Below are positions 1 to 22,071 of a DNA stretch of 40,444 nucleotides, in pieces (position 1 is the stretch's first letter; every line of letters begins with the position of its first letter). The position numbers and the translations under genes were made by a program. The notes below the pieces were generated by a model that saw only the letters and a program-made list of their open reading frames with translations, did not search any database and was not told the origin of the DNA. The stretch is taken from IMG/VR virus record IMGVR_UViG_2579778961_000003; one strand, 5' to 3'. Origin of the DNA: a virus (lineage: Duplodnaviria; Heunggongvirae; Uroviricota; Caudoviricetes).

Positions 1-1284
1 ATGGAATCCCTAACGTTACAACCCATCGCTCGTGTCGATGGCACTATTAATCTGCCCGGTTCCAAGAGCGTTTCTAACCGCGCTTTATTGCTGGCGGCAT
101 TAGCACACGGCAAAACAGTATTAACCAATCTGCTGGATAGCGATGACGTGCGCCATATGCTGAATGCATTAACAGCGTTAGGGGTAAGCTATACGCTTTC
201 AGCCGATCGTACGCGTTGCGAAATTATCGGTAACGGTGGTCCATTACACGCAGAAAGTGCCCGGGAGTTGTTCCTCGGTAACGCCGGAACGGCAATGCGT
301 CCGCTGGCGGCAGCACTTTGCCTGGGTAGCAATGATATTGTACTGAGCGGTGAACCGCGAATGAAAGAACGCCCGATTGGTCATCTGGTGGATGCGCTGC
401 GCCAGGGCGGGGCGAAGATCACTTACCTGGAACAAGAAAATTATCCGCCATTGCGTTTACAGGGCGGCTTTACTGGCGGCAACGTTGATGTTGATGGCTC
501 CGTTTCCAGCCAGTTCCTCACCGCACTGTTAATGACTGCGCCTCTTGCGCCGGAAGATACGGTGATTCGTATTAAAGGCGATCTGGTTTCTAAACCTTAT
601 ATCGATATCACCCTCAATCTGATGAAGACGTTTGGTGTTGAAATTGAAAATCAGCACTATCAACAATTTGTCGTAAAAGGGGGGCAGTCTTACCAGTCTC
701 CGGGCACTTATTTGGTTGAAGGCGATGCATCTTCGGCTTCTTATTTCCTGGCAGCAGCAGCAATCAGAGGCGGCACTGTAAAAGTGACCGGCATTGGACG
801 CAACAGTATGCAGGGTGATATTCGCTTTGCTGATGTTCTGGAAAAAATGGGCGCGACCATTTGCTGGGGCGATGATTATATTTCCTGCACGCGTGGTGAA
901 CTGAACGCCATTGATATGGATATGAACCATATTCCCGATGCGGCGATGACCATTGCCACCGCGGCGTTATTTGCAAAAGGCACCACCACGCTGCGCAATA
1001 TCTATAACTGGCGTGTTAAAGAGACCGATCGCCTGTTTGCGATGGCAACAGAACTGCGTAAAGTCGGTGCGGAAGTCGAAGAGGGGCATGATTTCATTCG
1101 CATTACGCCACCGGAAAAACTGAAATTTGCTGAGATCGCCACTTATAATGATCACCGGATGGCGATGTGTTTCTCGCTGGTCGCATTATCAGATACGCCT
1201 GTGACGATTCTTGATCCAAAATGTACCGCTAAAACTTTTCCAGACTATTTCGAGCAATTGGCGCGGATAAGTCAACCCGGCTGA
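1..1284 (+). CDS. aroA: 3-phosphoshikimate 1-carboxyvinyltransferase (EPSP synthase), host gene
   Basis: Full-length 427 aa ORF; sequence ([34 protein letters not shown]...) recognised as enterobacterial AroA, very close to E. coli AroA with a few substitutions. Confidence 0.97.
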
Positions 1285-1328
1285 ATGAATAACGGGCGAT
1301 AACATAGACAATCCTTTCTTTTCAAAGA

Positions 1329-1355
1329 CGTCGGCACATTGCCGGCGTTTTTTTT
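1329..1355 (+). terminator. Rho-independent terminator of aroA
   Basis: GC hairpin cgtcggca-cat-tgccggcg followed by a T8 tract, about 45 nt after the aroA stop. Confidence 0.6.
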
Positions 1356-1454
1356 CGGACCTTGTGGGGTATTTTTATTAATGGTAGCGTTAATTATCAA
1401 TGTAACTTGTTGATACATAATGTTTATATATAATTAATCAACGGATGATTCACA

Positions 1455-1540
1455 TGAAGAATGATGCGCCGCGCGATAAATGCACTCTATCTTGTGCGAT
1501 AAATGGCATCCACGCGGCGTTTCATTATTTGAAAAAGAAT
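1455..1540. other. Mu-type prophage end (attR-like) with repeated putative transposase-binding sites
   Basis: Begins 5'-TGAAG; CGATAAATGC/CGATAAATGG repeated at 1474-1483 and 1497-1506 and GTTTCATT...GAAAAAG at 1518-1537, resembling the Mu right end as I recall it (TGAAGCGGCGCACGAAAAACGCGAAAGCGTTTCACGATAAATGC). Confidence 0.55.
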
Positions 1541-2112
1541 TACATTTCAGGTTGCGTTATGACAGTCCCAACAGGGTGATAGCGGTAGATCGTTGACAGT
1601 CCAATATCATAGATAATTGCCAGCCGCTTTCTGTCATACCCTTTCTGGAGCAATCTTGCGATCTGCTCATGCTGCTCCTTCGTCAGTTTCGGGCGACGTC
1701 CTCCAACTCTTCCTTGTGCTCGCGCAGCAGCCAGTCCAGCCAGCGTGCGCTCAACTATCAGTTCACGCTCCATTTCTGCCAGTGCACCCATCATATGAAA
1801 AAAGAACCTTCCCATCGGAGTGCTGGTATCGATTGAATCCGTCAGACTGCGAAAATTGACACCTTTTGCGCGTAGCTCTTCTGTGAGAGCAATGAGGTGT
1901 TTCATTCTTCTACCCAACCGATCCAGCTTCCAGACCACCAATGTATCCCCTCTTTTAAGGCACTTTAAAGCGCGTTTCAGGCCTGGTCGTTCCGACTTGG
2001 TTCCGCTCATTTTGTCCTCAAAAATCTGTTCACATCCTGCGCACATTAATGCATTGCGTTGCAAATCTGTGTTTTGGTCATTTGTTGACACACGTATGTA
2101 GCCAATCAGCAT
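1540..2112 (-). CDS. gin: Serine recombinase, DNA invertase (Gin/Pin/Cin/Hin family)
   Basis: N-terminus MLIGYIRVSTNDQ (catalytic Ser motif) and C-terminal HTH; start placed at the internal ATG 2112 with AAGGGAG RBS rather than the ORF-track start at 2241. Confidence 0.85.
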   Translation of the reverse strand: MLIGYIRVSTNDQNTDLQRNALMCAGCEQIFEDKMSGTKSERPGLKRALKCLKRGDTLVVWKLDRLGRRMKHLIALTEELRAKGVNFRSLTDSIDTSTPMGRFFFHMMGALAEMERELIVERTLAGLAAARAQGRVGGRRPKLTKEQHEQIARLLQKGYDRKRLAIIYDIGLSTIYRYHPVGTVITQPEM

Positions 2113-2166: not shown

Positions 2167-2192
2167 GAGAGATAAACGTTGGTTTGGGGGAA
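2167..2192. other. Invertase crossover site (gix/hix-like), left
   Basis: 26-bp site GAGAGATAAACG TT GGTTTGGGGGAA with AAAC-NN-GTTT centre typical of hix/gix sites; outer half is identical to the right site in inverted orientation. Confidence 0.55.
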
Positions 2193-2645
2193 GGCTCTGC
2201 ATTGCCTGTTGGTGTACCGGTTCCATGGCCCACCGCCACACCGCCAGCAGGCTGGTTACAGTGCAACGGAGCTACGTTCACCAAAGAACAATATCCTGTT
2301 CTGGTCAGAGTCTACCCGACCCTCCGTCTTCCCGATTTGCGCGGTGAGTTTATCCGTGGATGGGACGGTGGTCGCAAGGTTGATACCGGGCGTGCGCTAC
2401 TTTCATTTCAGGAAGGGACTATCGTATCCGGTTTTGATGATAATGATACCGGAGATATCAGTTCGCTCGGCTCTACACAATACGGATTTGGTGACGCTTT
2501 AACCTCTAATCAACTGGGGGTCTTAAATGGCAAAAAGTGGATATTTGATGCATCCTCTAAAGGTGCACAAAGATATGACTGGTGGGCTTATGTATCAGCT
2601 CGCCCCCGCAATATCGCATTTAACTATATCGTGAGGGCGGCGTGA
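2184..2645 (+). CDS. Alternative tail-fibre C-terminal cassette (Sv'-like), promoterless until inversion
   Basis: First 70 aa nearly identical to residues 278-346 of the fibre at 3266..4603 (GEGSALPVGVPVPWPTATPPAGWL...), then a divergent C-terminus ending NYIVRAA. Confidence 0.7.
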   Translation: MGEGSALPVGVPVPWPTATPPAGWLQCNGATFTKEQYPVLVRVYPTLRLPDLRGEFIRGWDGGRKVDTGRALLSFQEGTIVSGFDDNDTGDISSLGSTQYGFGDALTSNQLGVLNGKKWIFDASSKGAQRYDWWAYVSARPRNIAFNYIVRAA

Positions 2646-2651
2646 TACCGT

Positions 2652-3266
2652 TCAGCCGGCAAGCGCCAGTGGCGCTTCCGGCCAGCTGATTTCAGGTGCC
2701 TTGCTGATATCCAGTGCGTTCAGCTCGTCGATATAATCCAGCACGGCGTTCAGTTTTGCCGTTTCTTCTGGTTTCAGACTGCGACCAGCACGCAGTTTGA
2801 GGTTGATAAGATCGACGGACGCCATCGCCTGTTTCACCCGTTGCTGGCGTTGCTGTCTGGCAACCTCCAGTTCTGCGGCTCGCTGCCGTTCAGTATCGGT
2901 TACCCACGCCTCACCGTTCCAGGTATCCCATGGCGTGGCTGGCTGTTTTGTGGTGGTGTCCGCCGGGTAATCACCCGGTTGGGTAATCAGAACGGGGTTA
3001 CCGTTCTCCGTGCTGTATACCGTCTCGCCGCGGTGATCAGGCACATGCTCCCACCCGTTCAGCGTGGCAGTCCGGCAAACCACGTAACCCGAAATTGCTT
3101 CCGGCGGTGCATCGGCGCACGAATGTGCCGGAGTACCCACCCCAAGGGCGAGATACTCCACAGAGGATGAGGTGTATTCCCGGGTTTCCTCGTCATAGTG
3201 ATATACAGTGATATCGCCCGCTACAGTGGCGATACCGTTTTCATCCAGAACTGCAGTGTTACTCAT
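2652..3266 (-). CDS. Tail fibre assembly protein (chaperone, Mu U / P2 G-like)
   Basis: 204 aa ORF immediately downstream of the fibre gene, inside the invertible segment; position and size typical of tail fibre assembly proteins. Confidence 0.75.
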   Translation of the reverse strand: MSNTAVLDENGIATVAGDITVYHYDEETREYTSSSVEYLALGVGTPAHSCADAPPEAISGYVVCRTATLNGWEHVPDHRGETVYSTENGNPVLITQPGDYPADTTTKQPATPWDTWNGEAWVTDTERQRAAELEVARQQRQQRVKQAMASVDLINLKLRAGRSLKPEETAKLNAVLDYIDELNALDISKAPEISWPEAPLALAG

Positions 3267-4603
3267 TAAACTGCCCTCACAATGTAATTAAGTGCAATGC
3301 TACGGGGTCTGACAGTGATACCCTTCGCATACCCGCTTCTGATAGAGGTCAGAATAGTAGCCTGCATACCATTGTCTGACATTGCCACGACAGGATCGCT
3401 GAATGTTGTCCCGTCCGGCATTTTAAAGCTGCCCTCACGAAGGTCTGTAATGGAATCTTCATTGTTGAATCCCATGCCGACTATCCCCGAGGTTCCCGTA
3501 GTGTCCTGGTTATAATAATCCAGCATTGCTGTTCTTAACAGCGTTGCCCCTTGTGCGGACAGCAACTTACGTCCTGTATCAACTTTGCGCCCGTCGTCCC
3601 ATCCACGGATAAACTCACCGCGTAAATCGGGAAGACGGAGGGTCGGGTAGACTCTGGCCAGAACAGGATATTGTTCTTTTGTAAAGGCGCGCCCGTCGCA
3701 CTTTAACCAGCCTGCTGGCGGTGTGGCAGTGGGCCACGGAACAGGTACACCAACGGGCAGCGCCGAGCCTTCCCCCAAACCAAGGTAATTGAGGACATCT
3801 TTTATACTGCCCTTAGCGATAATAGCGCGACCAATAGCTGTAAGGGTTGCCAGCTCTGCGCGGTCTGCTCCGGTAAAATAAGGCAACCGATCTGCTGCAG
3901 TGGCAAGTCCTGCCAGAGCAGTGAGCGTGGCATCTGCCGGTTGTTTTCCGTTTGCCAGATCGTATGCAGCCTTGACCGCTTTCGGTGTGGCGGCCAGTAT
4001 TTCAGACGTGCTGTTGATGGCACTGCTCAATTGTACGGTGCCTTTTGCCGTCAGCGAGGCAGCAGGCACTCCCGTTATCTGACTCCACGGGTGAGTGTGG
4101 CTGACGGGCGCCTTGCCGGCTGCAAGGTCGTATGCAGCCTTGACCGCCTTCGGCGTGGCAGCCTCAGTTTCTGATTGACTGTCCGTGGCGCTGCTCAGTT
4201 GTACGGTGCCTTTTGCCGTCAGTGAAGCCGCAGGCACTCCCGTTATCTGACTCCACGGGTGAGTGTGGCTGGCAGGCGCCTTGCCGGCTGCCAGGTCGTA
4301 TGCAGCCTTGACCGCTTTTGGTGTGGCGGCCAGCGTTTCAGAGGTGCTGTTGGTGGCACTGCTCAGTTGGGTGAACCCCTTAGCTGTCAGTGTCGCGTCC
4401 GGGTGGTTACGGGAACGTACGTGTTCAGCCAGTGACTGTGCGGCTTCCTCCGTTTTCTTCTTCAGCCATTTCGTCCTGTTTGCCAGTTGCCGGGGGGCTC
4501 GATTTGATATCCCGTCTGCACCACCCAGAACCGGATCTGATGTCTCCAGTTGATAGATATTTTCTTCCCACTTTTCTGTTTCATTCAGGTTTCCCATAAT
4601 CAA
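3266..4603 (-). CDS. Tail fibre protein (Mu S / P2 H-like) with variable C-terminus
   Basis: 445 aa; internal 56-aa repeats with the ...SETLAATPKAVKAAYDL... motif known from Mu/P1/P2 fibres; C-terminus ends NYIVRAV. Confidence 0.85.
   Translation of the reverse strand: MIMGNLNETEKWEENIYQLETSDPVLGGADGISNRAPRQLANRTKWLKKKTEEAAQSLAEHVRSRNHPDATLTAKGFTQLSSATNSTSETLAATPKAVKAAYDLAAGKAPASHTHPWSQITGVPAASLTAKGTVQLSSATDSQSETEAATPKAVKAAYDLAAGKAPVSHTHPWSQITGVPAASLTAKGTVQLSSAINSTSEILAATPKAVKAAYDLANGKQPADATLTALAGLATAADRLPYFTGADRAELATLTAIGRAIIAKGSIKDVLNYLGLGEGSALPVGVPVPWPTATPPAGWLKCDGRAFTKEQYPVLARVYPTLRLPDLRGEFIRGWDDGRKVDTGRKLLSAQGATLLRTAMLDYYNQDTTGTSGIVGMGFNNEDSITDLREGSFKMPDGTTFSDPVVAMSDNGMQATILTSIRSGYAKGITVRPRSIALNYIVRAV
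3770..3795. other. Invertase crossover site (gix/hix-like), right
   Basis: TTCCCCCAAACC AA GGTAATTGAGGA, about 19/26 matches to hix as recalled; inverted relative to the site at 2167-2192. Confidence 0.55.
3944..4393 (-). repeat. In-frame 168-bp tandem repeats (about 2.7 copies) inside the tail fibre gene
   Basis: Protein repeat SLTAKGTVQLSSA...TPKAVKAAYDLAAGKAP.SHTHPWSQITGVPAA at residues 71-126 and 127-182, partial third copy 183-220. Confidence 0.8.
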
Positions 4604-5178
4604 CTGCTCCCGTGGTTATAACTGCCATCATGGATGGCGGTATTGTTATAGCGAATGGCCACAGACTGATACTCCAGGCTGGCCAGATGGCAGCGGGCCG
4701 GTGCAAATGCAGCCAGCGTCTGACGCAGCATCGCGGCCTGATCGTTAGTAATGGGCTGTTTCAGAATAACGCGATAAACTGCCCAGGCGGCTGCATCTCC
4801 ATGAACAAACAGTCCGTTATAGCTGCGATTGCCGTCGTAACTGAGACGACCTGTGCCTTCAATCAGATCCACTTCACCAAAGCCAAAACGGCGGATAACT
4901 TCCCGGATTGACCACGGCGTCCCTTTATACCGGTGCAGTTCGATGGCTGCTTTTATAAGCATGCGGCGAACATCGTCCGATTCCGCCAGCTCCCAGCCAT
5001 CGCCAGACAGTGAGAACTGCTCGCCCAGCCATGGCAGCGCGGAACTGTCGACGATATCGACGAGAAAGACCATCAGTACGCTCAGGTCGATGTTATCCAG
5101 CCGTCCTGCCAGTCTTCCCAGCGTCCTGAGACTGATATCACCCTCAAGCGGTGGCGGGAGTTGTAATGGCTCAGTCAT
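4600..5178 (-). CDS. Baseplate/tail protein (P2 gpI-like)
   Basis: 192 aa; position between J-like gene and fibre gene as in P2-type baseplate modules. Confidence 0.65.
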   Translation of the reverse strand: MTEPLQLPPPLEGDISLRTLGRLAGRLDNIDLSVLMVFLVDIVDSSALPWLGEQFSLSGDGWELAESDDVRRMLIKAAIELHRYKGTPWSIREVIRRFGFGEVDLIEGTGRLSYDGNRSYNGLFVHGDAAAWAVYRVILKQPITNDQAAMLRQTLAAFAPARCHLASLEYQSVAIRYNNTAIHDGSYNHGSS

Positions 5179-6274
5179 CAGACACTCCAGTCATGTTAAG
5201 AGTGATTGCCGTACAGTTTGCCCATTCGTTTTCTGCCACCACCCGCAGTGCCGGTGTCACCAGTTCAACCTGGTACACCCCGGAAACGGACAATGCACTG
5301 ATAATCTGGCTGGGGACAATATCGCGCCCCAGCGTGGCGGCACGTGATGCCACCCAGTTCTGTATGGCGCTGTTAGCGGCATCTTTTACAGACCTGGCAT
5401 CCTGATCACGATAGATCGTAATCCTGGCTTCAATGGTGTAATCCACCTTCACTGGTGTTTTAGCCCGCACTGTATCAGTGAGTGGCCTGACTTTCTCATC
5501 AGAGCAGAAACTCTCTACCAGCGTGAGAACACCGCCGTCCGGCAGACCGGTACTGAGCAGCGGATACAGATCTACGGTCCCGGGAACCGGGGAAAGCACA
5601 GCAACATCGACAATGTTGGGATGGGCCTGCATGGCATGAAAGCGGTATGCGCCACGGCTTCCGGCATTGGTGAATGACTCCGGGGCCAGCCTGATACGCT
5701 CCCGGAGCCTGTCATCGTCTTCCTGTTCTGAACCGCCGGAACTGGCCATCAGATTGCTCACCAGCAGGTTAACGTTATCAATCTCATCGAGTAACTGACT
5801 GACCTGCGCAGGTTGCCAGCCGTTACCAGCGGTACCGGGTTCGGTACAGGTGGCCGTGACATTGACCAGCAGCAATCCGGCCTTCAGTACCACATCTGTA
5901 TCGGTGGCAAAAATAACGCTGTCGGAAGCGCTGACGCGGGTGCCTGCCGGGATCAGCACATCAATGGCCAGTGCCTCATCTACGGAGAACTGGAGCGTGG
6001 TGGTGGCAGGCTGCGCGGCAAGACGGTATACACCGACCAGTTCACCGAGGTAATCAATCATCGGCTCACGGGCAAAGGCGACCAGATTCTGCTTTGCTGC
6101 CTCCTGTACCGCAACCCTGACCAGCATTTCGCGATAGGCCCACAGATCAATCAGCAGACGTTCTGCCTGTGCCGGGTACAGCGTTTTGCCGGTATCCGCT
6201 TCATACTTCGCAATCATTTCTGCCGTGATTTTGTCGGCATCGCGTTCAATAAAATCGGGTTCTGTCAGCGCCAT
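5171..6274 (-). CDS. Baseplate protein J-like
   Basis: 367 aa; order W-J-I-fibre matches the P2-type baseplate module. Confidence 0.75.
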   Translation of the reverse strand: MALTEPDFIERDADKITAEMIAKYEADTGKTLYPAQAERLLIDLWAYREMLVRVAVQEAAKQNLVAFAREPMIDYLGELVGVYRLAAQPATTTLQFSVDEALAIDVLIPAGTRVSASDSVIFATDTDVVLKAGLLLVNVTATCTEPGTAGNGWQPAQVSQLLDEIDNVNLLVSNLMASSGGSEQEDDDRLRERIRLAPESFTNAGSRGAYRFHAMQAHPNIVDVAVLSPVPGTVDLYPLLSTGLPDGGVLTLVESFCSDEKVRPLTDTVRAKTPVKVDYTIEARITIYRDQDARSVKDAANSAIQNWVASRAATLGRDIVPSQIISALSVSGVYQVELVTPALRVVAENEWANCTAITLNMTGVSDD

Positions 6275-6612
6275 AGCAGCTCCTGAGTCCGGGTCTGTCC
6301 GTCTGAGCCTTTCCAGCTCACCCGGAGCGTAAGATGTTCGCCGTCGACGGCGGGTTTAACTGACATAAGCTGGCAGCGGGGCTCCCAGCGCCGGATGGCA
6401 TCGACGGATTCGCGCACCACATGCGGAATGGCCCGGTCTACAGGCCAGTCGATATAAAGATGCAGATTGCTGCCGAACTCCGGGCGATGCGGGTCGCTGC
6501 CGCGGGGAGTCCGCAGGATAATTTGAATCGCCTGCCGGATATCATCCAGCCCCCGGACAATTTCGCCGGGAGCCTGCAGGGCTGGTTGCCAGAATACTGA
6601 GGTTGTTTTCAT
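6265..6612 (-). CDS. Baseplate protein W-like (GPW/gp25 family)
   Basis: 115 aa small baseplate protein directly upstream of the J-like gene. Confidence 0.7.
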   Translation of the reverse strand: MKTTSVFWQPALQAPGEIVRGLDDIRQAIQIILRTPRGSDPHRPEFGSNLHLYIDWPVDRAIPHVVRESVDAIRRWEPRCQLMSVKPAVDGEHLTLRVSWKGSDGQTRTQELLWR

Positions 6613-6666
6613 GGGGGCAGTATTGCCCCCGTGCGGGAACGCTGATATTAAAGGCGTTTAAAAAGC

Positions 6667-7263
6667 TCAGTGGGAGTGGTGGCTGGAGTTTTCGCCATCA
6701 GACAACATACTGCCCGTGGCATGGACATTCCCTTTAATCTCGATATTGCCATGGATGGTCGCGGTAACACCTTCACCACCAGAACCCGCCATGCCTCCTT
6801 CGTAAATCAGCTTACCCCTGACACGCAGATCTCCGGTAAGTTCGGTTTCCGGTGCGTCAATCGTGGCTTTCTGTGTTTTCAATACCACATCAGCACCACA
6901 CTCAATGACAATATGCTCAATGCCGCCCCGGATGATCAGAGTGTGCGTCTTCCGGTTGTAGCTGTACTCTGCACCATCAGCAAACCGGGTTCCCCGGATA
7001 TTTTTGTCACTGAACGGTGGTTTATCGACGTCTGAATACACCGCGCCCAGAATAACACCATCCTCGCCGTTGGCATCGAGCAGCACCTCAACCTGCTCCC
7101 CCACGTCAGGGAGCCAGTAATCTTTGTTATCCTGGGTATTGCGCTGCAGCACGTTAAGCCAGTTTGTGCGCAGGTTATCGCATTCAGGCAGACGAACGCG
7201 GGCCTGAACCCTGTCGGCATCAACGGCACTGACCGTACCGACCTGACGAGTGACACCAGTCAT
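6667..7263 (-). CDS. Baseplate spike / assembly protein V-like
   Basis: 198 aa, N-terminal OB-like region and Gly-rich C-terminus; position between D-like and W-like genes. Confidence 0.7.
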   Translation of the reverse strand: MTGVTRQVGTVSAVDADRVQARVRLPECDNLRTNWLNVLQRNTQDNKDYWLPDVGEQVEVLLDANGEDGVILGAVYSDVDKPPFSDKNIRGTRFADGAEYSYNRKTHTLIIRGGIEHIVIECGADVVLKTQKATIDAPETELTGDLRVRGKLIYEGGMAGSGGEGVTATIHGNIEIKGNVHATGSMLSDGENSSHHSH

Positions 7264-8414
7264 TTTTTCTTCTCCTTAATCACCGTCGATGTACTGCCAT
7301 CCGGGTGATAAACCGTGAGTTTCTGAGTTTTTTGTTTTTTCCCTCTTGTGACTGGCCCCCGTGCCACTTCCAGCTCTGTGGTGTAGCCGCTGTTACGGTC
7401 AAACGCATGGCGGGCAGTGGTTATGAGCCATGGCCCGGATAACTGCCCAAAACTCACCAGTTCAATTTTGTTGCCTGCTGTCAGTTGAGGTGTTCCCGTC
7501 AGCGTCAGGGAGCCGTTCTGCTGGTATTCGTTATGTCTGGCCAGTGCTGAATCCGCTTTAATCCGGGCACTGTCCGGGTCGCTGACGCGGCTGTTAACTT
7601 TAAGTGAGTCAGCGCTGGTAACCTTACCACCTTTGAGCTTTTTGTCGCTTTCACGGGTACCACCATCAGCTTCGTAGACGATCAGTTTTTTACTGCTGCT
7701 TTTCTGGTGTTTTACCTTTGCAGATTTATAGACCCGGTTGATGGTGTCACGCAGGGAAAAGCGGGCCACATCCTGCGGTTTTAACTGCCTGACCGGCTCC
7801 TGACTGCGCAGTGTGGCCAGATGAGAAAAAATCAGCTGGTCACTGACCACTTTCACTGCATAACCATACTCGCTGGCCAGCCGGCGCAGAAAACCCACGT
7901 CGGTTTCAGCATACTGGGTCACCCGGTCGATTCTGATGGACTCAATGCTGCCCACCAGTTTCAGCCGGTGCTTTCTGGCAATCCGCCCCGCAACAGCTGC
8001 CAGCGTGGTGTTCTCAAAACCACGACTGGTTTTAGTCCGCAGGGCACTGTTAACCGAGGTGGCCACCCCACGGATAGAAACAACGGAAGCGGGCGAACTC
8101 ACTTCGATCTCGTCTATAGAGAACGTACCGCAGGACAGCAGCTTCTCGCCCTGATAGCCCATTTTCAGCGTCAGCGTGTCACCCTTGCCCGGATACCATT
8201 TATCCAGCCAGCGGCCATCGGTGTCGTCCAGCTCCACCTCAATGGTATCGGACTCATTTTTGATGTTATCGCTCCAGGTCACACGGGTGACATAAGGCGC
8301 GATATCAGAGGTGATGTTTTTCTGCAGATACCACAGAGTGAACACCGGTGTCAGCACATCGCTGACGCCGGTTAACGCTGATGTGACTTGCGCAGTGCTG
8401 TTTATCTCAGCCAT
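7260..8414 (-). CDS. Tail protein D-like (P2 gpD-like)
   Basis: 384 aa; position after X-like and U-like genes as in P2. Confidence 0.7.
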   Translation of the reverse strand: MAEINSTAQVTSALTGVSDVLTPVFTLWYLQKNITSDIAPYVTRVTWSDNIKNESDTIEVELDDTDGRWLDKWYPGKGDTLTLKMGYQGEKLLSCGTFSIDEIEVSSPASVVSIRGVATSVNSALRTKTSRGFENTTLAAVAGRIARKHRLKLVGSIESIRIDRVTQYAETDVGFLRRLASEYGYAVKVVSDQLIFSHLATLRSQEPVRQLKPQDVARFSLRDTINRVYKSAKVKHQKSSSKKLIVYEADGGTRESDKKLKGGKVTSADSLKVNSRVSDPDSARIKADSALARHNEYQQNGSLTLTGTPQLTAGNKIELVSFGQLSGPWLITTARHAFDRNSGYTTELEVARGPVTRGKKQKTQKLTVYHPDGSTSTVIKEKKK

Positions 8415-8617
8415 GGGGCAATATCCTCTTCTGTACGGGCTTCTTCAGCCTCAATCACCGGGATCAGTAACAACAGCCCGGAGGGCAGCACCGGCGTGAT
8501 GGCCACGTGCGGATTGGCGGCAATAATCCGGGGATAGCCCAGCGGGTCACCGTAGTACTGCCATGCCAGCGAATCCCAGCGCTCTCCGTCACGGGTAACA
8601 TGTTCAAGAAACATCAC
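8402..8617 (-). CDS. Tail protein X-like
   Basis: 71 aa ORF between U-like and D-like genes, size and position of P2 gpX. Confidence 0.55.
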   Translation of the reverse strand: MMFLEHVTRDGERWDSLAWQYYGDPLGYPRIIAANPHVAITPVLPSGLLLLIPVIEAEEARTEEDIAPWLR

Positions 8618-9498
8618 ACACTCCTCGTCAGTATTCTGGCGGCCATTGCACTTAATCCCGGAGACATGCGGTTGAATGCTGTGCCGACGGCGTTAAGCTG
8701 CCCGGAAACGGTATCCAGAGCACCTGCAATATTTCTTTTGTCCACACCACTCAGCGCAGACTGTGCCTGCTGTACATACGTGGCTGCTTCGCTGGCTGTT
8801 CTGGCCAGACTGATGGCATCGGGCATGGATTCAGAGAGTGCGTTAAACGCCGGAACACTTTTCCCCAGAGCCCCGGAGATATTACCCAGTCCGCTCATCA
8901 GCCCCGGCACACGGGTCAGTGCGACAACGGGGTTATCCTTCATTTTCTGTGTCACCCGAACGGCGCTGATAGTGGTCTGGAGTACAGACTGCGCCTGTTT
9001 CGCATAGTTGACGCCGTTGCGGATGAACTGCGCCACCCCTGAAGGTGAAGGTATGGCACCGGAGACCGCCCCGACACCCGGGAGCTTCGTGCGTATTGCC
9101 GGTGGTTGCAGAGGATTTTTCGGGTCACCGGTGTATTCCCGGAGAGACACGGTGGCACTGACAGCCAGCACGTTGCCGGTACTGTCAGTCTGCTCGCTGG
9201 TTGCAGTCACATCGGTGATCACGAACCAGCCGCGATAGTCACCGTTGCCGAAGACCAGCGCCAGTGCCTGATGGGCTTTCATGGCTGTTCGCAGTCTCGC
9301 CAGCTCCACATCGGGTACACAATAATGCTGATGGAAAACCAGAGTTATCTGGATTTCGTCCAGCCTGTCGCCGACGAACTGCAGACCAGGCTTACCCCCG
9401 ATGCGGGCATGCTCCGCATAATCGACGCCGAACGTGGCCTCGAAGCCGTCCCAGTAGGTAATCAGCTCAAACTCAATATCACCCAGTACGGCAAACAT
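8614..9498 (-). CDS. Tail protein U-like with C-terminal extension
   Basis: N-terminus MFAVLGDIEFEL...GGKPGLQFVGDRLDEIQITL follows the P2 gpU pattern as recalled; immediately downstream of the tape measure gene. Confidence 0.6.
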   Translation of the reverse strand: MFAVLGDIEFELITYWDGFEATFGVDYAEHARIGGKPGLQFVGDRLDEIQITLVFHQHYCVPDVELARLRTAMKAHQALALVFGNGDYRGWFVITDVTATSEQTDSTGNVLAVSATVSLREYTGDPKNPLQPPAIRTKLPGVGAVSGAIPSPSGVAQFIRNGVNYAKQAQSVLQTTISAVRVTQKMKDNPVVALTRVPGLMSGLGNISGALGKSVPAFNALSESMPDAISLARTASEAATYVQQAQSALSGVDKRNIAGALDTVSGQLNAVGTAFNRMSPGLSAMAARILTRSV

Positions 9499-12449
9499 CA
9501 GCGGTACTCCTTACGTTGTTTCTGAGCCAGCAGACGCTCCAGCATTTTTTCCAGCTCATGCAGACTCATATTCAGGGCACCAGTCAGTCCTGCAGGCGCT
9601 GTGGTTTCCCTGCCATTGAGGAAAAACTGAGGATTAAAGCTGACCTGGATACCACCAGACGTTCCACCGCCGGTTGCAGCTGCACCACGGCCTGAATATC
9701 CGGCAGCCAGGATTTCAGGCGAGGGGATACGGGGAACATCCGGTGTCATCTCATTTGCCAGACGTTGCCCTGGTAAAATCGATGCCCGGGTGGAGAGCGG
9801 AATAGCGGGCATGGAAGACAAACTATTGATTACGGCTCCGATCGCATTTTTAGCAGACGACATAAACCCATTGATATCGGGCAACGGCATACTGAAGCGA
9901 ACACCTGAAGTGTTATCCCGTATTTCTGGCCCCTGAATGCTCACGGGCATTCTGGGGAGCAGTTCACTGGCCATTCGCTGCCCGGCCAGAGCTGCAAGCG
10001 GAGTGGTCCGCTGCAGGCCAATGGCGGCCCCCTGCGCGATATTGTCACCAAAGCCCATAAACACGCGGCTCGGCGAATGAATGCCCAGCTTTTCGCTGAA
10101 CCAGCCACTGATGCTGTCGCCCATTCCGGTTACACTGGATTTGAGCGACTCCCATTTGTTTTTGATACCGTTAATCAGACCATCGACAAGATGGCCACCG
10201 AAGTCGGTAAACTTTGCCGGCAGATCAACACCAAGATATTTCAGCGCAGCTGCAAAGGCTTTATAGAGCAGACCTGCCGGCGACCAGTTAATCAGCAGCT
10301 TACCAGTTCCCGCGATACCGCCGTTAAAGGCTTCCTGAATGTCAGCCCAGCATTGTTTAAACCAGCTACTGATGCTGTCACCCATTCCGGTTACACTGGA
10401 TTTGAGCGACCCCCATTTGTTTTTGATACCGTTAATCAAACCGTCGATAAGATGGCCACCGAAGTCGGTGAACTTTGCCGGCAGAGTAACGCCGAAATAT
10501 TTCAGCGCAGCCGCAAAGGCTTTATAGAGCAGGCCTGCCGGCGACCAGTTAATCAGCAGCTTACCAGTTCCCGCGATACCGCCGTTAAAGGCTTCCTGAA
10601 TGTCAGCCCAGCGCTGTTTAAACCAGCCACTGACTGCCCCCCAGTTGCGGTAGATAAGGTAAGCTGCTGCCGCGACAGCGGTGATAACGAGACCGATGGG
10701 ATTCATCATCAGCGCTCGCCCAATCCAGAGAACGGCACGTGCAGCGCTCATAAAACCGCGAACGAGGCTGCCCGCCAGAACTTTGCTGAGTTTCAGTCCT
10801 CCGCTGGTCAGTCGGCTGAATCCAGTGACAAGCCAGCGTAATTTGCCACCTTCTCCGAGTGCGGTAGTCAGTCGATGCCAGTTGGTCCGGAGTAAAACAG
10901 CAGTTTTCCAGACGTTCACAAAGGGGGAAATAAGGAGATTCAGCCCCAGTTTGAGACCAACAGTCGCTATCTTAATCGCAAGGAGCGCACTGATGAGCTT
11001 AAAAGCCCCACTGACAAATTGCGGGTGAGTCGCCACCCAGTGTTTTGTCCCCTGAATGAGTGGGAGCAAGTCCTGAGTCAGAGAAATAAAAGATGGAGCT
11101 AATTGATCGCCCAGCGTAATTGCCAGATCGCGACTGCTGACCATAAGTGTTTTAGTGGCTTCAAGGGGAGATTTCAGCCGCTGATCATAAGCACTGGCAA
11201 GCAAATCGTTATCCGCAGCCCTGAGAGCACCGGCACGGATCTCTCGATATCTGTCCATGTTGGCCAGCATCGGGCGGATAAATGCCATGACCTGCATATC
11301 CGCGAACATATCGCCCAGACCAAAGTTTTTCGCCAGAGCCTGAAGTGCCTCATCTCTTGCCGTATCATTCTTTATTTTCATGGCTGATTTGAAGCCGGCC
11401 AGCGCTTCGGGGCTTTTGGCATTGAGGTAACGTTCTATAACACTCAACATCCCTTCAATCGGAGAGATCCCCGCAGCTTTATAACTCGCAATAGATCCCT
11501 GCAAATCAATACCCAGATCAGCAAACTGTTTCTGAGTATCGCGGGCAAAAATTTTGGTAAGAAAGTTTTTAAAATTATTGGCTGCTTCGTCGGTGGAACC
11601 TGCACCGATTTTTGCTATCTGGAGACTGGCCCCGATTTCAGCAACAGCCTCTTTTCCACTGGCAATACCCGCCATCATTGGGGCCAGGGACTGCATCCAC
11701 TTGACCTGATCCGGGATTTCAAATGACCCCTGGTCACCGGCATAAGCCATAATATTCTGAACGGCACCAAAATCTCTGGCCGCGCCTTTCAGGGAGTTTT
11801 GCCAGACTGCGGCCACTTTTGCCCAGTCCTGAGCAGACGTGCGTGTTGCCGTTGCCGCGCGGGCAATATCCGGCATCAGAAAACCGATATCTGACACATT
11901 ATCAATATTGTCGCTGATGAGTGAACCCATCGCCTCCTGCAGCTCATCCTGATACTGATTGTATTTAAGCGCCCAGCCTTTTATCTGTCCGGCAAGTGCA
12001 TCCCGCGTTTTATTGTCATATTTTGCGGTGATCGACATATCAATCATTTTGTCCTGAAAAGACATGGACTGCTGAACGGCAGGGGAAACCGTATGATAAA
12101 CAGTCTGTGCCATGCCATACGCTTCAATCCCCTGACCATACAGCGCCATGCGGTTAGCTTTCAGCGCATCACTGGTAGCGGATGCCGCTGACAGACGGCG
12201 CTGCTGGCGCTCAATTTGCTCCATGGTGCGGCTTACCCGCAGCAGCTCGCTGTTGAGATGCTGCATCCGGGAAGAACCCAGTTGACCATAACGTTCTGTT
12301 GCACGGGTTAAAGCGTTCTGACGTTCCTGCAGGCGGCGTGAGGTATCGCTCAGGGAATCAAGCGCACGGCGGGTACCGCTCATTGCAGAACGGAATGTGC
12401 TGCCAATCATCCCGCCGATAACAACGCCGACTGAAAACTGTCCCGACAT
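9498..12449 (-). CDS. Tail tape measure protein
   Basis: 983 aa, coiled-coil N-terminal region, hydrophobic central region, located after the frameshifted tail chaperone. Confidence 0.9.
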   Translation of the reverse strand: MSGQFSVGVVIGGMIGSTFRSAMSGTRRALDSLSDTSRRLQERQNALTRATERYGQLGSSRMQHLNSELLRVSRTMEQIERQQRRLSAASATSDALKANRMALYGQGIEAYGMAQTVYHTVSPAVQQSMSFQDKMIDMSITAKYDNKTRDALAGQIKGWALKYNQYQDELQEAMGSLISDNIDNVSDIGFLMPDIARAATATRTSAQDWAKVAAVWQNSLKGAARDFGAVQNIMAYAGDQGSFEIPDQVKWMQSLAPMMAGIASGKEAVAEIGASLQIAKIGAGSTDEAANNFKNFLTKIFARDTQKQFADLGIDLQGSIASYKAAGISPIEGMLSVIERYLNAKSPEALAGFKSAMKIKNDTARDEALQALAKNFGLGDMFADMQVMAFIRPMLANMDRYREIRAGALRAADNDLLASAYDQRLKSPLEATKTLMVSSRDLAITLGDQLAPSFISLTQDLLPLIQGTKHWVATHPQFVSGAFKLISALLAIKIATVGLKLGLNLLISPFVNVWKTAVLLRTNWHRLTTALGEGGKLRWLVTGFSRLTSGGLKLSKVLAGSLVRGFMSAARAVLWIGRALMMNPIGLVITAVAAAAYLIYRNWGAVSGWFKQRWADIQEAFNGGIAGTGKLLINWSPAGLLYKAFAAALKYFGVTLPAKFTDFGGHLIDGLINGIKNKWGSLKSSVTGMGDSISSWFKQCWADIQEAFNGGIAGTGKLLINWSPAGLLYKAFAAALKYLGVDLPAKFTDFGGHLVDGLINGIKNKWESLKSSVTGMGDSISGWFSEKLGIHSPSRVFMGFGDNIAQGAAIGLQRTTPLAALAGQRMASELLPRMPVSIQGPEIRDNTSGVRFSMPLPDINGFMSSAKNAIGAVINSLSSMPAIPLSTRASILPGQRLANEMTPDVPRIPSPEILAAGYSGRGAAATGGGTSGGIQVSFNPQFFLNGRETTAPAGLTGALNMSLHELEKMLERLLAQKQRKEYR
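10075..10640 (-). repeat. 261-bp in-frame tandem duplication (2 copies plus the start of a third) inside the tape measure gene
   Basis: ccagc(c/t)actgatgctgtc recurs at 10101, 10362 and 10623 (period 261 bp); the protein shows two 87-aa units WFKQ(R/C)WADIQEAFNGGIAGTGKLLINWSPAGLLYKAF... Confidence 0.9.
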
Positions 12450-12524
12450 AGTGGTTAACCTCCGGGGAAGGTGAAAAGACGTGAGGGGATAACGCAGAAC
12501 AGCCGCTACTGGCGGCTGTCTGTA

Positions 12525-12942
12525 CTATGATTTGTCGCCGTACTCGCTTTTGATTTGCTCTTCAGCCTGCTCCAGCCACATCTCCAGATCGTCAGTATCG
12601 AGGGCATCAATCTCCCCCGGCTGAAACCGGAACCATCTCGCCAGCAGCCCCTGCGCCTGCGTCAGCGCCCTGGTTGCTCTCACCCATCCCCGTGATGAGC
12701 TGAAATCGTTTCTGTAACTGCAGGTAATCAGCCAGATCCATATTGTCGAGATCCTCCGGGAGAAGACCAGTACTGCGGGCAATCAGCGGTTCGTCCCAGT
12801 CTGCCGGGTTTTTGCTGATTTTGCGCACCTGCTTCAGGTCTTTTACCGTCAGGCGTTTCAGTTCAACCAGCTCAATTCTGGTGCCTGCAGCAGTGGTGAA
12901 GGGATAAGACAATTTAAAAGTATCGGATGGGGTCTGTGACAT
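12525..12942 (-). CDS. Tail assembly chaperone, predicted frameshift-extended product (E+E'-like)
   Basis: Overlapping ORF 12525..12782 in the +1 frame fills the otherwise 157-nt gap before the tape measure gene; a G5 run (plus-strand C5 at 12614-12618) lies just before the zero-frame stop. Confidence 0.5.
12607..12942 (-). CDS. Tail assembly chaperone (P2 gpE-like), zero-frame product
   Basis: 111 aa ORF with AGGAG RBS between tail tube and tape measure genes. Confidence 0.7.
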   Translation of the reverse strand: MSQTPSDTFKLSYPFTTAAGTRIELVELKRLTVKDLKQVRKISKNPADWDEPLIARSTGLLPEDLDNMDLADYLQLQKRFQLITGMGESNQGADAGAGAAGEMVPVSAGGD

Positions 12943-13018
12943 GATTGTGCTCCTGTGTAAGTTCAGGGCAGTATGTCGGGAGAAGCGCGTGACGGATATT
13001 AAAGGAGATTAAGAAGAA

Positions 13019-13032
13019 GGGGCCGGAGCCCC
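13019..13032 (-). terminator. Hairpin with T-rich tail downstream of ORF 13040..13321
   Basis: Minus strand GGGGC-TCCG-GCCCC followed by TTCTTCTTAATCTCCTTT, 8 nt after the ORF stop. Confidence 0.4.
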
Positions 13033-13039
13033 TGTGATG

Positions 13040-13321
13040 TCAGCAAGTGCGAAACCCCTTGCAGTTACGCAGGAAAGCGATGAGAAGCGTCTTTCCCTCA
13101 GATTTGCCGATGCCGGAGAACCAGTGGTCGGGAGGCTCCCATGCTTCAATCAAATCCGCCAGTTTGCGGGCCTTTGAACGTGTGCAGTCAATCGGGTCAT
13201 TGGTTTTACGGGTATTAAAAAGGGTTTCCACCCCCGGAATATCAAGGAGGGTAAACCACGTACCATTTGACATGCCCAGTGCCGCACATCGTCCTCCTTT
13301 ATCCGTCAGTTCAACACTCAC
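13040..13321 (-). CDS. Hypothetical protein inserted between tail tube and tail chaperone genes (possible moron)
   Basis: 93 aa ORF starting at GTG 2 nt after the tube stop; not part of canonical P2 or Mu tail gene order; followed by its own hairpin. Confidence 0.4.
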   Translation of the reverse strand: MSVELTDKGGRCAALGMSNGTWFTLLDIPGVETLFNTRKTNDPIDCTRSKARKLADLIEAWEPPDHWFSGIGKSEGKTLLIAFLRNCKGFRTC

Positions 13322-13323
13322 CG

Positions 13324-13845
13324 TCAGCCCCCGATATTGATACGGTAGTCAGTCAGTTGATCAACACCGCCGACCCGGAAGATGTTGGCCAGATAGTCCA
13401 GTTGCAGCAGCTCTTCACCATCCAGTACCTGTCTGATATACGTGCAGGTGAAGCTACTGGAGAACTCGGCGTTCTCGTGCTGTTTGAACGTCCCCAGCGG
13501 GTTCTTCTTGAACATAATCGTCAGGAAGGTGACCAGCGGGATTTCGTCAATCAGCCCCTGCGAGCTGTAGCGCTGGACGCTGGAACGACACTGCAGTGCC
13601 AGCGACCTGTACGGGTTCGCGGCAGACAGCATCGCATCGCGGTAAAAGCTGTTCCATTTGATTTCGCCTTCCAGTTTGTCAAAACCAGCCGGGAGTTCCA
13701 CCTTACCCACCATCCCCAGCGCCTTGTGTTCCTGCATAATCATGGAGACATCGGGGAGTTTAACTTCCTCAGCCCGTCCCAGCAGGTTAGTACCATCCAG
13801 ATAGATGTTGGCATTCGTGATGCGGTTTATCTCAATCTTTGACAT
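13324..13845 (-). CDS. Tail tube protein (P2 FII-like)
   Basis: 173 aa ORF directly after the sheath gene. Confidence 0.8.
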   Translation of the reverse strand: MSKIEINRITNANIYLDGTNLLGRAEEVKLPDVSMIMQEHKALGMVGKVELPAGFDKLEGEIKWNSFYRDAMLSAANPYRSLALQCRSSVQRYSSQGLIDEIPLVTFLTIMFKKNPLGTFKQHENAEFSSSFTCTYIRQVLDGEELLQLDYLANIFRVGGVDQLTDYRINIGG

Positions 13846-15272
13846 CAGTTGCCCCCTTTCAGGGTTAACAGGTATTCCGAGGTGATCTCAGTCTCAAACG
13901 TCAGTCGCTCCAGCGGCGGTGGTGGCGTATATTTGTAGCTCAGCAACAGGTGCCCGGCGGCCAGCTCCGTCTCCGGATTGCGGGCCGGATCAAACCAGCA
14001 ACGGAAGCCCAGTACCGCACCATCACCAGTCATTTTGCGACCGTAGGCGTTGACCGACTCCGTCAGTGCATCAATCAGCGCCTGAGTAATCGGCATGTCG
14101 ATGTACTGCTGGCTGAAATAACGAATGGACTCGTTGATCACATCACCGGTGCGGCGAACGTTCTCAAAGTTACGCATATGGGTGACCGTTGGCCATGCTG
14201 CCGTCCGGTTACCCCACAGACGAAGGCCGCTGCCGTAACTGCTGAATACCGTGGTGATCCCCTGTTCGTTAAGCAGGTTCACCTCACTCTGCGGGTCATC
14301 AATCATCGCGGACAGCTGGCGCTCCACGCCGGTGATCCCCAGAATCTCCTGATTGGAGGATGACCACCAGTAGCCCTTGTCCAGATCGACTCTGGCACGC
14401 AGACCTGCTGCACGCTGGCTGAGCGGCTCCAGACGCTCTGTGTTTGTCACCGGGTCATATACCTTCACATGCGGATAGCACAGACGGACGCGGTCGGAGC
14501 TGGTATTGAAGTTGATGGTGCCTTCCGGGCCACGACCTGCCAGAGCCTGTGCAAAGGTGGTACCGACAGGCGCATCAATGTAGGTTACCGCGCCCAGCTT
14601 CTCTGCCATGGCGATAAGCTCAACTGCGACACTCTTCTGGGTGCAGAACACCGGCGCAATCAGAATTTTGGCGAAATAGCCGTACAGGTTGAAGCTGTCG
14701 TTAAGCAGCTTCATGCCGGTTCGGTTTCCGGCGCTGTTCACCCCGCCGATGATGTCCGCCGCAGTCACCTTCGACGGGTCCGCGTACTCATAGCTCACCT
14801 TCACGCTGCCACCGGCCTCAATAGCCTTGCCCAGGTTCGTGAGCACACCCGCCTGCGCATCAACACGGTAGTCCGTGTTCGCCGTGTGGGTGGTGCTGCC
14901 TTCACTGTTTTTCACCACCACATTAGCGACAACCGGATGCGCCAGTCTGGCCTGCCCTGTCGATTTGTCAAAGGTAACCACCTCATCCTCGATCGCCGTT
15001 TTATGTTTCGCCGGGTCGAGGACGTTAATGACCAGAACGGTGCCTGCACCATGGTCATAAATCGCATCCAGCGCCTGCGGAATGGTAAAGCCGGTGAACT
15101 GGCTGCCAAATGCCGCTGCGTCTTTCTCAGACAGGCACTGTACCAGCGTATTGACATCCCCCATCGGGGCGGTACCAATCAGGCCAATAACGGCAGATTT
15201 CACCGTTTTAACCGGGCGGGCACCGTTTTCCACCTCAATGGTTTCGGGACCATGCAGATAGTTAGCTGCCAT
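13845..15272 (-). CDS. Tail sheath protein
   Basis: 475 aa; size and position typical of contractile tail sheath (Mu L / P2 FI family). Confidence 0.9.
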   Translation of the reverse strand: MAANYLHGPETIEVENGARPVKTVKSAVIGLIGTAPMGDVNTLVQCLSEKDAAAFGSQFTGFTIPQALDAIYDHGAGTVLVINVLDPAKHKTAIEDEVVTFDKSTGQARLAHPVVANVVVKNSEGSTTHTANTDYRVDAQAGVLTNLGKAIEAGGSVKVSYEYADPSKVTAADIIGGVNSAGNRTGMKLLNDSFNLYGYFAKILIAPVFCTQKSVAVELIAMAEKLGAVTYIDAPVGTTFAQALAGRGPEGTINFNTSSDRVRLCYPHVKVYDPVTNTERLEPLSQRAAGLRARVDLDKGYWWSSSNQEILGITGVERQLSAMIDDPQSEVNLLNEQGITTVFSSYGSGLRLWGNRTAAWPTVTHMRNFENVRRTGDVINESIRYFSQQYIDMPITQALIDALTESVNAYGRKMTGDGAVLGFRCWFDPARNPETELAAGHLLLSYKYTPPPPLERLTFETEITSEYLLTLKGGN

Positions 15273-15516
15273 GGGTGTCCTCCGTTTTCACTTCGCTGTC
15301 ACTGCTGCTTCTGCGCTTTGGTGACTGCACAGCCGGTGTGCCGGCGGGTTTAGTCTCTTCAGGTACCGGCGTCAGATGTTTCAGCGCCACCAGTACCTTC
15401 ACGTAGTCATGCTCCTCCGGCAGGGAAACCGTCTTCCCCGGCCAGAGCAGGATTTCGGTTCCGTCCGACAGCGTGACGCCGCTGGCCGGGCCGGAATAGC
15501 GGTATTCTTTCATCAC
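15262..15516 (-). CDS. Hypothetical head-tail region protein (Mu gp38-like position)
   Basis: 84 aa ORF overlapping the sheath start by 11 nt. Confidence 0.45.
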   Translation of the reverse strand: MMKEYRYSGPASGVTLSDGTEILLWPGKTVSLPEEHDYVKVLVALKHLTPVPEETKPAGTPAVQSPKRRSSSDSEVKTEDTHGS

Positions 15517-15977
15517 TCGCTTTCCTCATAGTTCACTTCGGTTAACAGCGGGCCGGACGGTAAATCGCTGTCTTCGATAAAGACGCTTTCAGTCGCGAAG
15601 TCGAGGGCGTACTGCCACAGCCCCCTGACTTCACCGATAAACACCTCGCGGGTCAGCCAGATACGGCGGCGGCAGCCGGGCGGGGTGTGGCCACCGAGAA
15701 TGCGGCGGACAGCATCCAGGACATTAATCGCCCCTTTTTTACCGTTGAGCTGGCGGAAGACCACCGTGACGCAGAGCTGGATAGTCTGAGACTGGATCAC
15801 CGCACCGGTATCATCCGGCCTGTCAAAGCGCGAACCGGCATAGCTCAACAGCAACGCGCCAACCGGATGGTTCAGGCGATATTCAGCCGGTTTCTCCGGG
15901 AAGTACTCCACCTGCAGTTGCGGCAGCTTCTCGCGTAACCGGGCCAGTACCGCATCAAGGACGGGCAGAACGTTCAT
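15513..15977 (-). CDS. Hypothetical head-tail region protein (Mu gp37-like position)
   Basis: 154 aa ORF, start overlaps upstream stop. Confidence 0.5.
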   Translation of the reverse strand: MNVLPVLDAVLARLREKLPQLQVEYFPEKPAEYRLNHPVGALLLSYAGSRFDRPDDTGAVIQSQTIQLCVTVVFRQLNGKKGAINVLDAVRRILGGHTPPGCRRRIWLTREVFIGEVRGLWQYALDFATESVFIEDSDLPSGPLLTEVNYEESE

Positions 15978-16423
15978 CAGTATTTCTCCAGTAAACCGTC
16001 ACGACCGCCGAAAGTGGCCGGGCGACTGCGTACACGAAACTCGCCAGGCTCAGGCACATCTTTCTGAGTGGACGGCAGCCCCAGCGTGAGCCTGTTATCA
16101 CGTAACTCCCTGAGTTGCCGCAGCGCTTCTTTGTGGTCATCCTTCACCGTATCCGGGAGGTCACCTTCCGGGCGGCGGGCGTAGAGCCGGTAACGGACCA
16201 GCGTGATGGCAATGTCCCGCAGAACAGTCGGTATCTCTGCCAGTGGCAGGATATAGCGTCCGCGCAGATGGGCATCAATCAGCTCGTCGGCATAGCGGAT
16301 ACAGCTGTCCACCACACGGGTATTCACTGTTGCAGGTGAGTCGAAGTCCATCTCTTCACTGGTGAGCTCGATAAGCGTCCGCTCCGGCACCTGCGCAAGC
16401 AAATCCTCCAGGGTGCAGTACAT
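15977..16423 (-). CDS. Hypothetical head-tail connector region protein (Mu gp36-like position)
   Basis: Start placed at internal ATG 16423 (MYCTLEDLLAQ...), overlapping the upstream stop as ATGA; the ORF-track start at 16585 would overlap the neighbouring gene. Confidence 0.5.
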   Translation of the reverse strand: MYCTLEDLLAQVPERTLIELTSEEMDFDSPATVNTRVVDSCIRYADELIDAHLRGRYILPLAEIPTVLRDIAITLVRYRLYARRPEGDLPDTVKDDHKEALRQLRELRDNRLTLGLPSTQKDVPEPGEFRVRSRPATFGGRDGLLEKY

Positions 16424-16424
16424 G

Positions 16425-16763
16425 TCACACCCCGCGCAGGATACGAATGACGTCGCCTTCACCCCCGGCTTCATCAAGTGCAATACCACAGGATTTACCG
16501 TCGCCGGACTGCGGCACGGCTCTGGCCTGAGCATCTGACTGAACAGCCACACCACGGCTGACAGCGGCCCCGGCCTCGACAGCAATAATGCCCAGAACGC
16601 TCACCGGCGTGCTGTCGCCGGTAACAGCATCCACTTCGGCAACCCCGAGCGCTGCGGCACCGGCTTTACAGGGGGTATTATCTGCCCCGACAAAACGCTG
16701 CTGTGCCAGTGCTGCCCCTGCCGTTACGGTTGTGATCAGAATGACCTGCTGAGTGGTTCCCAT
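16425..16763 (-). CDS. Small Ala/Gly/Val-rich putative head protein
   Basis: 112 aa ORF directly downstream of the major head gene. Confidence 0.5.
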   Translation of the reverse strand: MGTTQQVILITTVTAGAALAQQRFVGADNTPCKAGAAALGVAEVDAVTGDSTPVSVLGIIAVEAGAAVSRGVAVQSDAQARAVPQSGDGKSCGIALDEAGGEGDVIRILRGV

Positions 16764-16772
16764 AACGCCTCC

Positions 16773-17726: not shown

Positions 17727-17740
17727 GCTCTCTCCTTAAA

Positions 17741-18614: not shown

Positions 18615-18644
18615 GTAAGCGTCAACGGAGCACCGTATTGACGC

Positions 18645-20258: not shown

Positions 20259-20288
20259 GACCGTTTTTATAATGCGGTCAGGAGTTTT

Positions 20289-20639
20289 TTACAACATTGT
20301 CAGTGAGTTACGGCTGGATGTTTTTGGCTGACGCCAGTCCAGCTTATCGAGGAGCATTGCCAGTTGCGAGCGGGTAATGGATACCTTGCCGTCACGTACC
20401 GCAGGCCAGATAAACTGGCCTTCCTCCAGGCGTTTGGTGAACAGGCACAGACCATCAGCATCAGCCCAAAGAATTTTGACGGTGTCACCCCGTCGGCCAC
20501 GGAAGATAAACAGGTGACCGGAGAAGGGATTATCATTCAGCACATGTTGTACCTGTTCTCCCAGTCCGTTGAAGGATTTACGCATATCGGTAACGCCGGC
20601 AACGAGCCAGATACGGGTACCTGATGGGAGTGAGATCAT
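20289..20639 (-). CDS. IS66 Orf2 (TnpB) accessory protein
   Basis: 116 aa ORF in IS66 position 2; overlaps TnpA stop. Confidence 0.85.
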   Translation of the reverse strand: MISLPSGTRIWLVAGVTDMRKSFNGLGEQVQHVLNDNPFSGHLFIFRGRRGDTVKILWADADGLCLFTKRLEEGQFIWPAVRDGKVSITRSQLAMLLDKLDWRQPKTSSRNSLTML

Positions 20640-22069: not shown

Positions 22070-22071
22070 TG

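Follow-up and report, generated by a model that had tools for sequence, protein, structure and literature searches.

Evidence that a BcepMu-like transposable prophage of Escherichia coli ends inside the third codon of ycaL, downstream of aroA

The transposable phages that come closest to the element described here are BcepMu, Pseudomonas phage B3 and Mu. Mu proper (Muvirus) generates 5-bp target-site duplications and has a collinear genome (c-ner-A-B, late genes, gin-mom, all rightward except c), whereas BcepMu has two arms diverging from a central repressor, with an acyltransferase gene at its right end. Two organisations, B3-like and BcepMu-like, are recognised in the literature (title of Toussaint and Van Gijsegem, 2018). 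Phages of the BcepMu-like group package DNA with variable host sequences at the ends and replicate by transposition. PMC8705779 ascribes 6-bp duplications to B3/Tn552-family transposases and TG…CA ends to Mu- and B3-like phages, and PMC2628397 describes TG…CA termini for BcepMu-related prophages; the saltovirus integration-site paper gives no duplication length for B3-type phages. With regard to E. coli ST131, inversion of the tail-fibre segment of prophage Phi2 has been reported from PacBio data (PMC4134206), and the presence of Bcepmuvirus prophages in ST131 genomes has already been reported by automated typing.

Our results indicate, with a probability of about 0.95, that the DNA analysed here (referred to as the window, the whole stretch of 40,444 nucleotides of IMG/VR virus record IMGVR_UViG_2579778961_000003) is from position 1462 onward the right end (tail-fibre/invertase side) of a BcepMu-like transposable prophage, identical with Phi2 of the E. 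coli ST131 strain EC958 and belonging to the genus Bcepmuvirus, which entered the third codon of ycaL by DDE transposition. EC958 has the same aroA-prophage-ycaL arrangement as the window, and its 'Phi2_3prime' site (PMC4134206, Table 3) has the very sequence of the crossover site at 2167-2192. An earlier note, made from the sequence of the window, had described a Mu-type prophage end about 170 bp downstream of aroA. The right end of a transposable prophage, with repeats and without a mom region, is indeed present. However, the junction has to be moved from 1455 to 1462, the duplication changed from TCACA to the 6-bp GAAGAA, the target specified as codon 3 of ycaL and the family changed from Mu to BcepMu/B3. 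The element itself is already known, its biology is ordinary and the understanding of transposable phages is unchanged; the main value of the analysis lies in correct annotation, that is, the boundary base, the 6-bp scar, the disrupted ycaL gene and the BcepMu/B3 lineage of the transposase. The features of the window are listed in Table 1.

Table 1. Features of the window, with positions, strand and basis of assignment
Feature	Position	Strand	Basis
Host aroA	1..1284	+	RefSeq annotation of identical sequence in strains 4/1-1 and EC958
Host aroA-ycaL intergenic region, uninterrupted	1285..1453	+	100% identical to prophage-free NU14
Host ycaL, first 8 bases (ATGAAGAA), severed from the remainder by the prophage	1454..1461	+	NU14 ycaL start ATGAAGAATACT at L002 1855
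Target-site duplication GAAGAA, left copy	1456..1461	.	Both junctions read in 4/1-1 and EC958; right copy beyond the window, beside the rest of ycaL
Prophage terminus (right end, BcepMu convention), two 23-bp imperfect direct repeats (1462-1484 and 1485-1507)	1462..1507	+	Terminus common to eight flanks
Gin/Cin-type serine DNA invertase	1540..2112	-	Pfam Resolvase 8e-51 and HTH_7; 138/190 residues identical to Mu Gin (73%)
Invertible tail-fibre segment, 26-bp crossover sites 2167-2192 (+) and 3770-3795 (-), inside 229-nt inverted repeats	2167..3795	.	
Late arm: tail fibre, P2-like baseplate, tail and sheath, head, terminase and lysis genes	3266..28901	-	RefSeq annotation of collinear prophage; BcepMu collinearity
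IS66-family insertion sequence, 2,532 bp, in head gene	18615..21146	-	8-bp duplication TGACCATC at 18607-18614 and 21147-21154; Pfam DDE_Tnp_IS66, TnpB_IS66, HTH_Tnp_1
D12-class (Dam-like) adenine methylase, central region	30422..31276	+	Pfam MethyltransfD12 9e-29
HTH_3/cI-type repressor candidate, where the two arms diverge	31393..31749	-	Pfam HTH_3 and Phage_CI_repr; position as BcepMu gp17
Transposase TnpA, Tn552/B3-type rve DDE enzyme, 589 aa	33656..35425	+	Only Pfam match rve
Transposition ATPase, ExeA/AAA_22 type, TnpB equivalent	35436..36602	+	Pfam AAA_22 4e-20; RefSeq 'ExeA family'; position as BcepMu gp08
Gam host-nuclease inhibitor	36902..37432	+	Pfam Phage_Mu_Gam 1e-40
GemA	39634..40083	+	Pfam GemA 8e-41
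Mor late activator, last gene before left end	40055..40444	+	Pfam Mor 1e-43

The host side of the junction was examined with a query (window positions 1100-1700) against 5,426 complete E. coli genomes, all of which gave a match. The whole query is covered in 360 of these genomes. Empty sites were matched in thousands of genomes; in the prophage-free genomes among the matches listed, with identities from 100% down to about 87%, the alignment ends at query base 363, which corresponds to window position 1462, and overlaps the annotated ycaL. The empty site of the prophage-free strain NU14 reads …TTCACATGAAGAATACTAAA, and the sequence across the site is …GGATGATTCACATGAAGAATACTAAATTATTG, the start codon of ycaL being that ATG. 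TCACA (1450-1454) and TGAAG (1455-1459) are both present as quoted in the earlier note, but TGAAG falls within the first codons of ycaL, ATGAAGAAT, aTGAAGAAT (Met-Lys-Asn). A phage start at 1455 is contradicted by this comparison, which the earlier note had proposed for fixing the junction: the uninterrupted host locus continues past 1455 to 1462, the outcome named there as one that would refute the boundary. The insertion does lie downstream of aroA, but it is located inside the ycaL coding sequence, after ATGAAGAA, and not simply in the intergenic region. As the true terminus is T1462, the stop codon of the invertase gene is 78 bp from the phage end rather than the 85 bp given earlier. There are no genes or ORFs between the invertase and the phage end, and the suggested absence of a mom-like region is confirmed.

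The prophage begins at 1462 with TGATGCGCC…, its terminal dinucleotide being TG. Its far end is not inside the window, because the window ends at the stop codon of the Mor-family gene (40444). Strain 4/1-1, which is 100% identical over the junction query and, but for two indels, collinear with the window, holds the whole element, and here the left end is found 163 bp after the Mor stop codon; for the window this corresponds to about 163 bp past its edge. With a slash marking each boundary, the left junction in 4/1-1 reads …CACATGAAGAA/TGATGCGCCGCGCGATAAATGC… and the right junction reads …CATTTATCTCAAGTCTAATCA/GAAGAA/TACTAAATTATTG. The same junctions are shared by 4/1-1 and EC958 (left, …ATGAAGAA/TGATGCGCC…; right, …TCTAATCA/GAAGAA/TACTAAA). 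The left junction is present in 360 genomes and the right junction in 358, and the right junction of the copy in the window is presumably the same, judging from the approximately 360 genomes with an identical left junction.

As the repeat at ycaL could also be read as 7 bp (GAAGAAT), we compared six further prophages situated in other genes (a FHIPEP gene, fadL, hycH, upaG, yecR and kefF). Their ends are TGATGCGCC…(A/G)ATCA, and they are flanked by perfect 6-bp repeats (GGAGGC, TTTAGC, TCTGTT, CCAATA, GTTATG and ACAGGA) that are never extended by the base that follows. All seven independent insertions, ycaL and the six others, thus have TGAT…ATCA ends and a perfect 6-bp repeat that differs by site; an eighth junction, on a plasmid, displays an identical terminus, which brings the number of flanks to eight. 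On the basis of the six further sites, with the same ends and unextended repeats, the terminus can be placed at T1462 and the duplication at 1456-1461 (GAAGAA). TCACA, which had been predicted as a 5-bp duplication to be confirmed at the other end, is not duplicated: the far junction carries GAAGAA without TCACA, and every duplication is 6 bp.

The sequence CGATAAATG occurs exactly twice in the 40-kb window (1474-1482 and 1497-1505), 23 bp apart, against a chance expectation of 0.23 copies; two copies were reached in 2 of 100 shuffles. Each 23-bp unit contains a core, G-N-GATA-WW-T, at the same offset (1473-1481 and 1496-1504). The spaced pair GNGATAWWT-N14-GNGATAWWT has a single occurrence in the window and is absent from all of 100 shuffles. 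Each complete prophage locus examined, the seven from E. coli as well as BcepMu, has exactly two, inverted and at the two ends. The far end of the prophage and both ends of BcepMu consist of the same two 23-bp units in inverted orientation. This strong comparative support suggests that the GATAAAT repeats are likely to be transposase-binding sites. The repeated elements that the earlier note compared with the transposase-binding sites of the Mu right end are therefore real, as the cores of two 23-bp units that are inverted at both ends. The likeness to the Mu end given in the earlier note is also sound, since 17 of the terminal 22 bp match the Mu right end and the Mu end contains CGATAAATGC. 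Mu has three MuA sites per end, in contrast to the two recognisable repeat units per end in this prophage.

In tblastn comparisons, the transposase is 100% identical to that of phage PhiKM, classified as a Bcepmuvirus in GenBank. It shares 56% identity with B3 TnpA and 68% (over 98% of the length) with BcepMu gp09, whose annotation reads 'Tn552/IS1604 rve transposase'. None of the Pfam domains specific to MuA are found in the enzyme, and the transposase matches listed (40 of 69 phage records) are BcepMu/B3-type phages, with neither Mu nor D108 among them. An ExeA-like AAA+ ATPase gene is directly downstream. Along with the Tn552/B3-type rve DDE transposase, the prophage exhibits a 6-bp duplication (at seven independent sites and again in EC958), TG…CA termini with inverted repeated motifs that represent putative binding sites, a BcepMu layout (a leftward early arm ending with GemA and Mor, a central repressor and a rightward lysis-head-tail arm, as judged against NC_005882), and a wide choice of unrelated insertion sites (it occurs at 655 places in 597 genomes, and seven different genes are disrupted). 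All testable traits of the BcepMu-like group are thereby found. Three traits that define Mu are not: the layout is not collinear, the transposase is not of the MuA type and there is no 5-bp duplication; duplications are 6 bp at every site examined, and the early and late arms occupy opposite strands. The designation Mu-type is accordingly valid in the sense of a transposable, Mu-like right end, but not in the strict sense, as the transposase is of the Tn552/B3 family and the arms diverge as in BcepMu.

The resemblance to the BcepMu group extends to the position of Mor at the extreme left, the P2-like contractile tail genes, the collinear gene order, and the TG…CA termini with two 23-bp repeats harboring a GATAWWT core at each end. 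The prophage differs from BcepMu in having a Gin-type invertase and an invertible tail-fibre segment at the end where BcepMu has its acyltransferase gene, in the Dam-like methylase of its central region and in its terminal tetranucleotide (TGAT, compared to TGAA in BcepMu). With B3 it shares, besides the related TnpA, the 6-bp duplication and TG…CA ends reported in PMC8705779, but B3 is a siphovirus and its genome is organised differently. Similarities to Mu are integration and, presumably, replication by transposition, the Mor, GemA and Gam homologs, TG…CA termini, the Gin-type invertase beside the right end and the resemblance of the terminal 22 bp. The element is distinct from Mu in its 6-bp duplication, in a transposase without MuA-specific domains, in an early operon that is inverted relative to the late genes and in the absence of com/mom.

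These results bear on three other ways of reading the junction. A canonical Mu-type right end that starts at 1455 in the intergenic region downstream of aroA and duplicates TCACA is barely conceivable. TGAAG does correspond to the inward-read start of the Mu right end and of both BcepMu ends, CGATAAATG is also a sequence of the Mu right end, and the window encodes Mor, GemA, Gam and a Gin-like invertase. However, the empty sites extend through 1462, the far junction reads …ATCA/GAAGAAT, and bases 1455-1461 are missing from the terminus at seven other insertion sites, which together rule out this possibility. The uniform 6-bp duplications and the nature of the transposase also argue against canonical Mu, and the similarity to the Mu right end itself is lower in the 1455 register (20/60 identities) than in the 1462 register (26/60). 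Moving the boundary by a single base, so that the phage starts at G1463 and the duplication is the 7-bp GAAGAAT that stands on both sides of the prophage at ycaL, is very improbable. The six other insertions rule this out, as the phage still begins with TGATG at each of them and the base after the right repeat is not T (e.g., GGAGGC/G). T1462 is consequently a phage base, and its match to the host AAT codon is coincidental.

Integration by a site-specific recombinase at an attachment site in ycaL could account for the approximately 360 genomes with the prophage at the same position, and is in agreement with the identical junctions in 358-360 genomes and with the serine recombinase gene that adjoins the end. 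We nevertheless consider it highly unlikely. Near-identical prophages reside in at least seven unrelated genes, with differing 6-bp duplications and no shared core sequence. Moreover, the recombinase is an invertase of the Gin type, and crossover sites of its own lie on either side of the tail-fibre segment; the phage also encodes a DDE transposase and an ATPase. Site-specific integration was rejected. Clonal descent accounts better for the shared site, the carriers including EC958, JJ2434 and a strain labelled ST131. As unrelated sites are used elsewhere, a single insertion inherited by descent is the best explanation for the identical junction in approximately 360 genomes.

Transposition of a BcepMu-like prophage into ycaL thus remains the preferred reading. 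The genomes themselves show the precise termini, the 6-bp duplications, the use of many insertion sites and the genes for the transposase and ATPase. Conservation and the known properties of the family suggest how insertion may proceed. The Tn552/B3-type transposase, aided by the ExeA-like ATPase, would bind the paired 23-bp repeats at both ends and cleave at the terminal TG…CA. The 3' ends would then be joined to target phosphates staggered by 6 bp, and gap repair would give rise to the GAAGAA duplication.

The copy in the window carries an IS66-family element (inverted ends GTAAGCGT…, three ORFs) in the gene just upstream of the major capsid gene. Strain 4/1-1 is without this element, and the junction between IS66 and prophage is absent from complete RefSeq E. 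coli genomes. Because the insertion is in a head gene, the window copy is probably defective and unable to form virions. The window also lacks 439 bp that are present in 4/1-1 in the region of the tail-fibre segment (2167-3795). The tape-measure gene contains an internal repeat of approximately 260-290 bp (window 10099-10651), and the tape-measure genes of relatives are 2,952 or 3,213 bp.

Diversity is also observed among the other copies. The immunity and central regions vary, with differing HTH repressors and a Dam-like methylase that is either present or replaced. Between Mor and the left end, some relatives (L006, 37646-38639; L007 and L008, equivalent region) carry two extra small genes (~210 aa and 53 aa), and the left end itself is a slightly different sequence variant in them. 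PhiKM (PQ738613; L009, 20200-20620), deposited as a 'partial genome', has its Mor-side phage end at ~20577, preceded by a fragment with the annotation Fe2+ ABC transporter permease that looks like attached host DNA or an assembly join. Among the 655 places with related prophages, 14 are on plasmids. The P1-like phage-plasmid pKY1497_2 (NZ_AP019805; L012, ~40842-41800) harbors a solo prophage right end inside its own invertase gene (…MLIGYIRISTND/TGATGCGCC…), followed by the prophage invertase (same RefSeq protein accession) and tail-fibre module, while the remaining prophage genes are absent. This arrangement points to an insertion and a later recombination event between homologous tail-fibre regions.

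At the host locus, the promoter and ATG of ycaL are separated from the rest of the gene, which lies ~39 kb away. The aroA side retains the promoter and ATGAAGAA, and reads into the phage end as a 41-codon ORF (window 1454-1579) antisense to the invertase gene. At the far end, just outside the right edge of the window (L001, 38463-38520), the ycaL ATG is replaced by CAG in lysogens, and there is no ATG, GTG or TTG between the upstream in-frame TAA and codon 2 of ycaL. In 4/1-1 and EC958, the YcaL protein annotated by RefSeq has 260 aa and an ATT start that lies within the phage end. Promoter and terminator scans around both junctions revealed nothing above chance. Based on the CAG in place of ATG and the lack of a canonical start codon, ycaL is probably silenced or strongly reduced in lysogens. 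The remaining ycaL ORF is intact; it is fused in frame to 13 phage-end codons and is positioned directly downstream of the early operon (GemA-Mor), with no terminator detected between the two.

Approximately 360 complete genomes, including EC958 and other strains labelled ST131, therefore carry a ycaL gene without its native start codon and promoter. Beyond a mere knock-out of ycaL in ST131, there is a slight chance that the envelope metalloprotease YcaL could be expressed only via read-through from the prophage. If this were true, an outer-membrane quality-control protease would be coupled to prophage activity in a pandemic clone.
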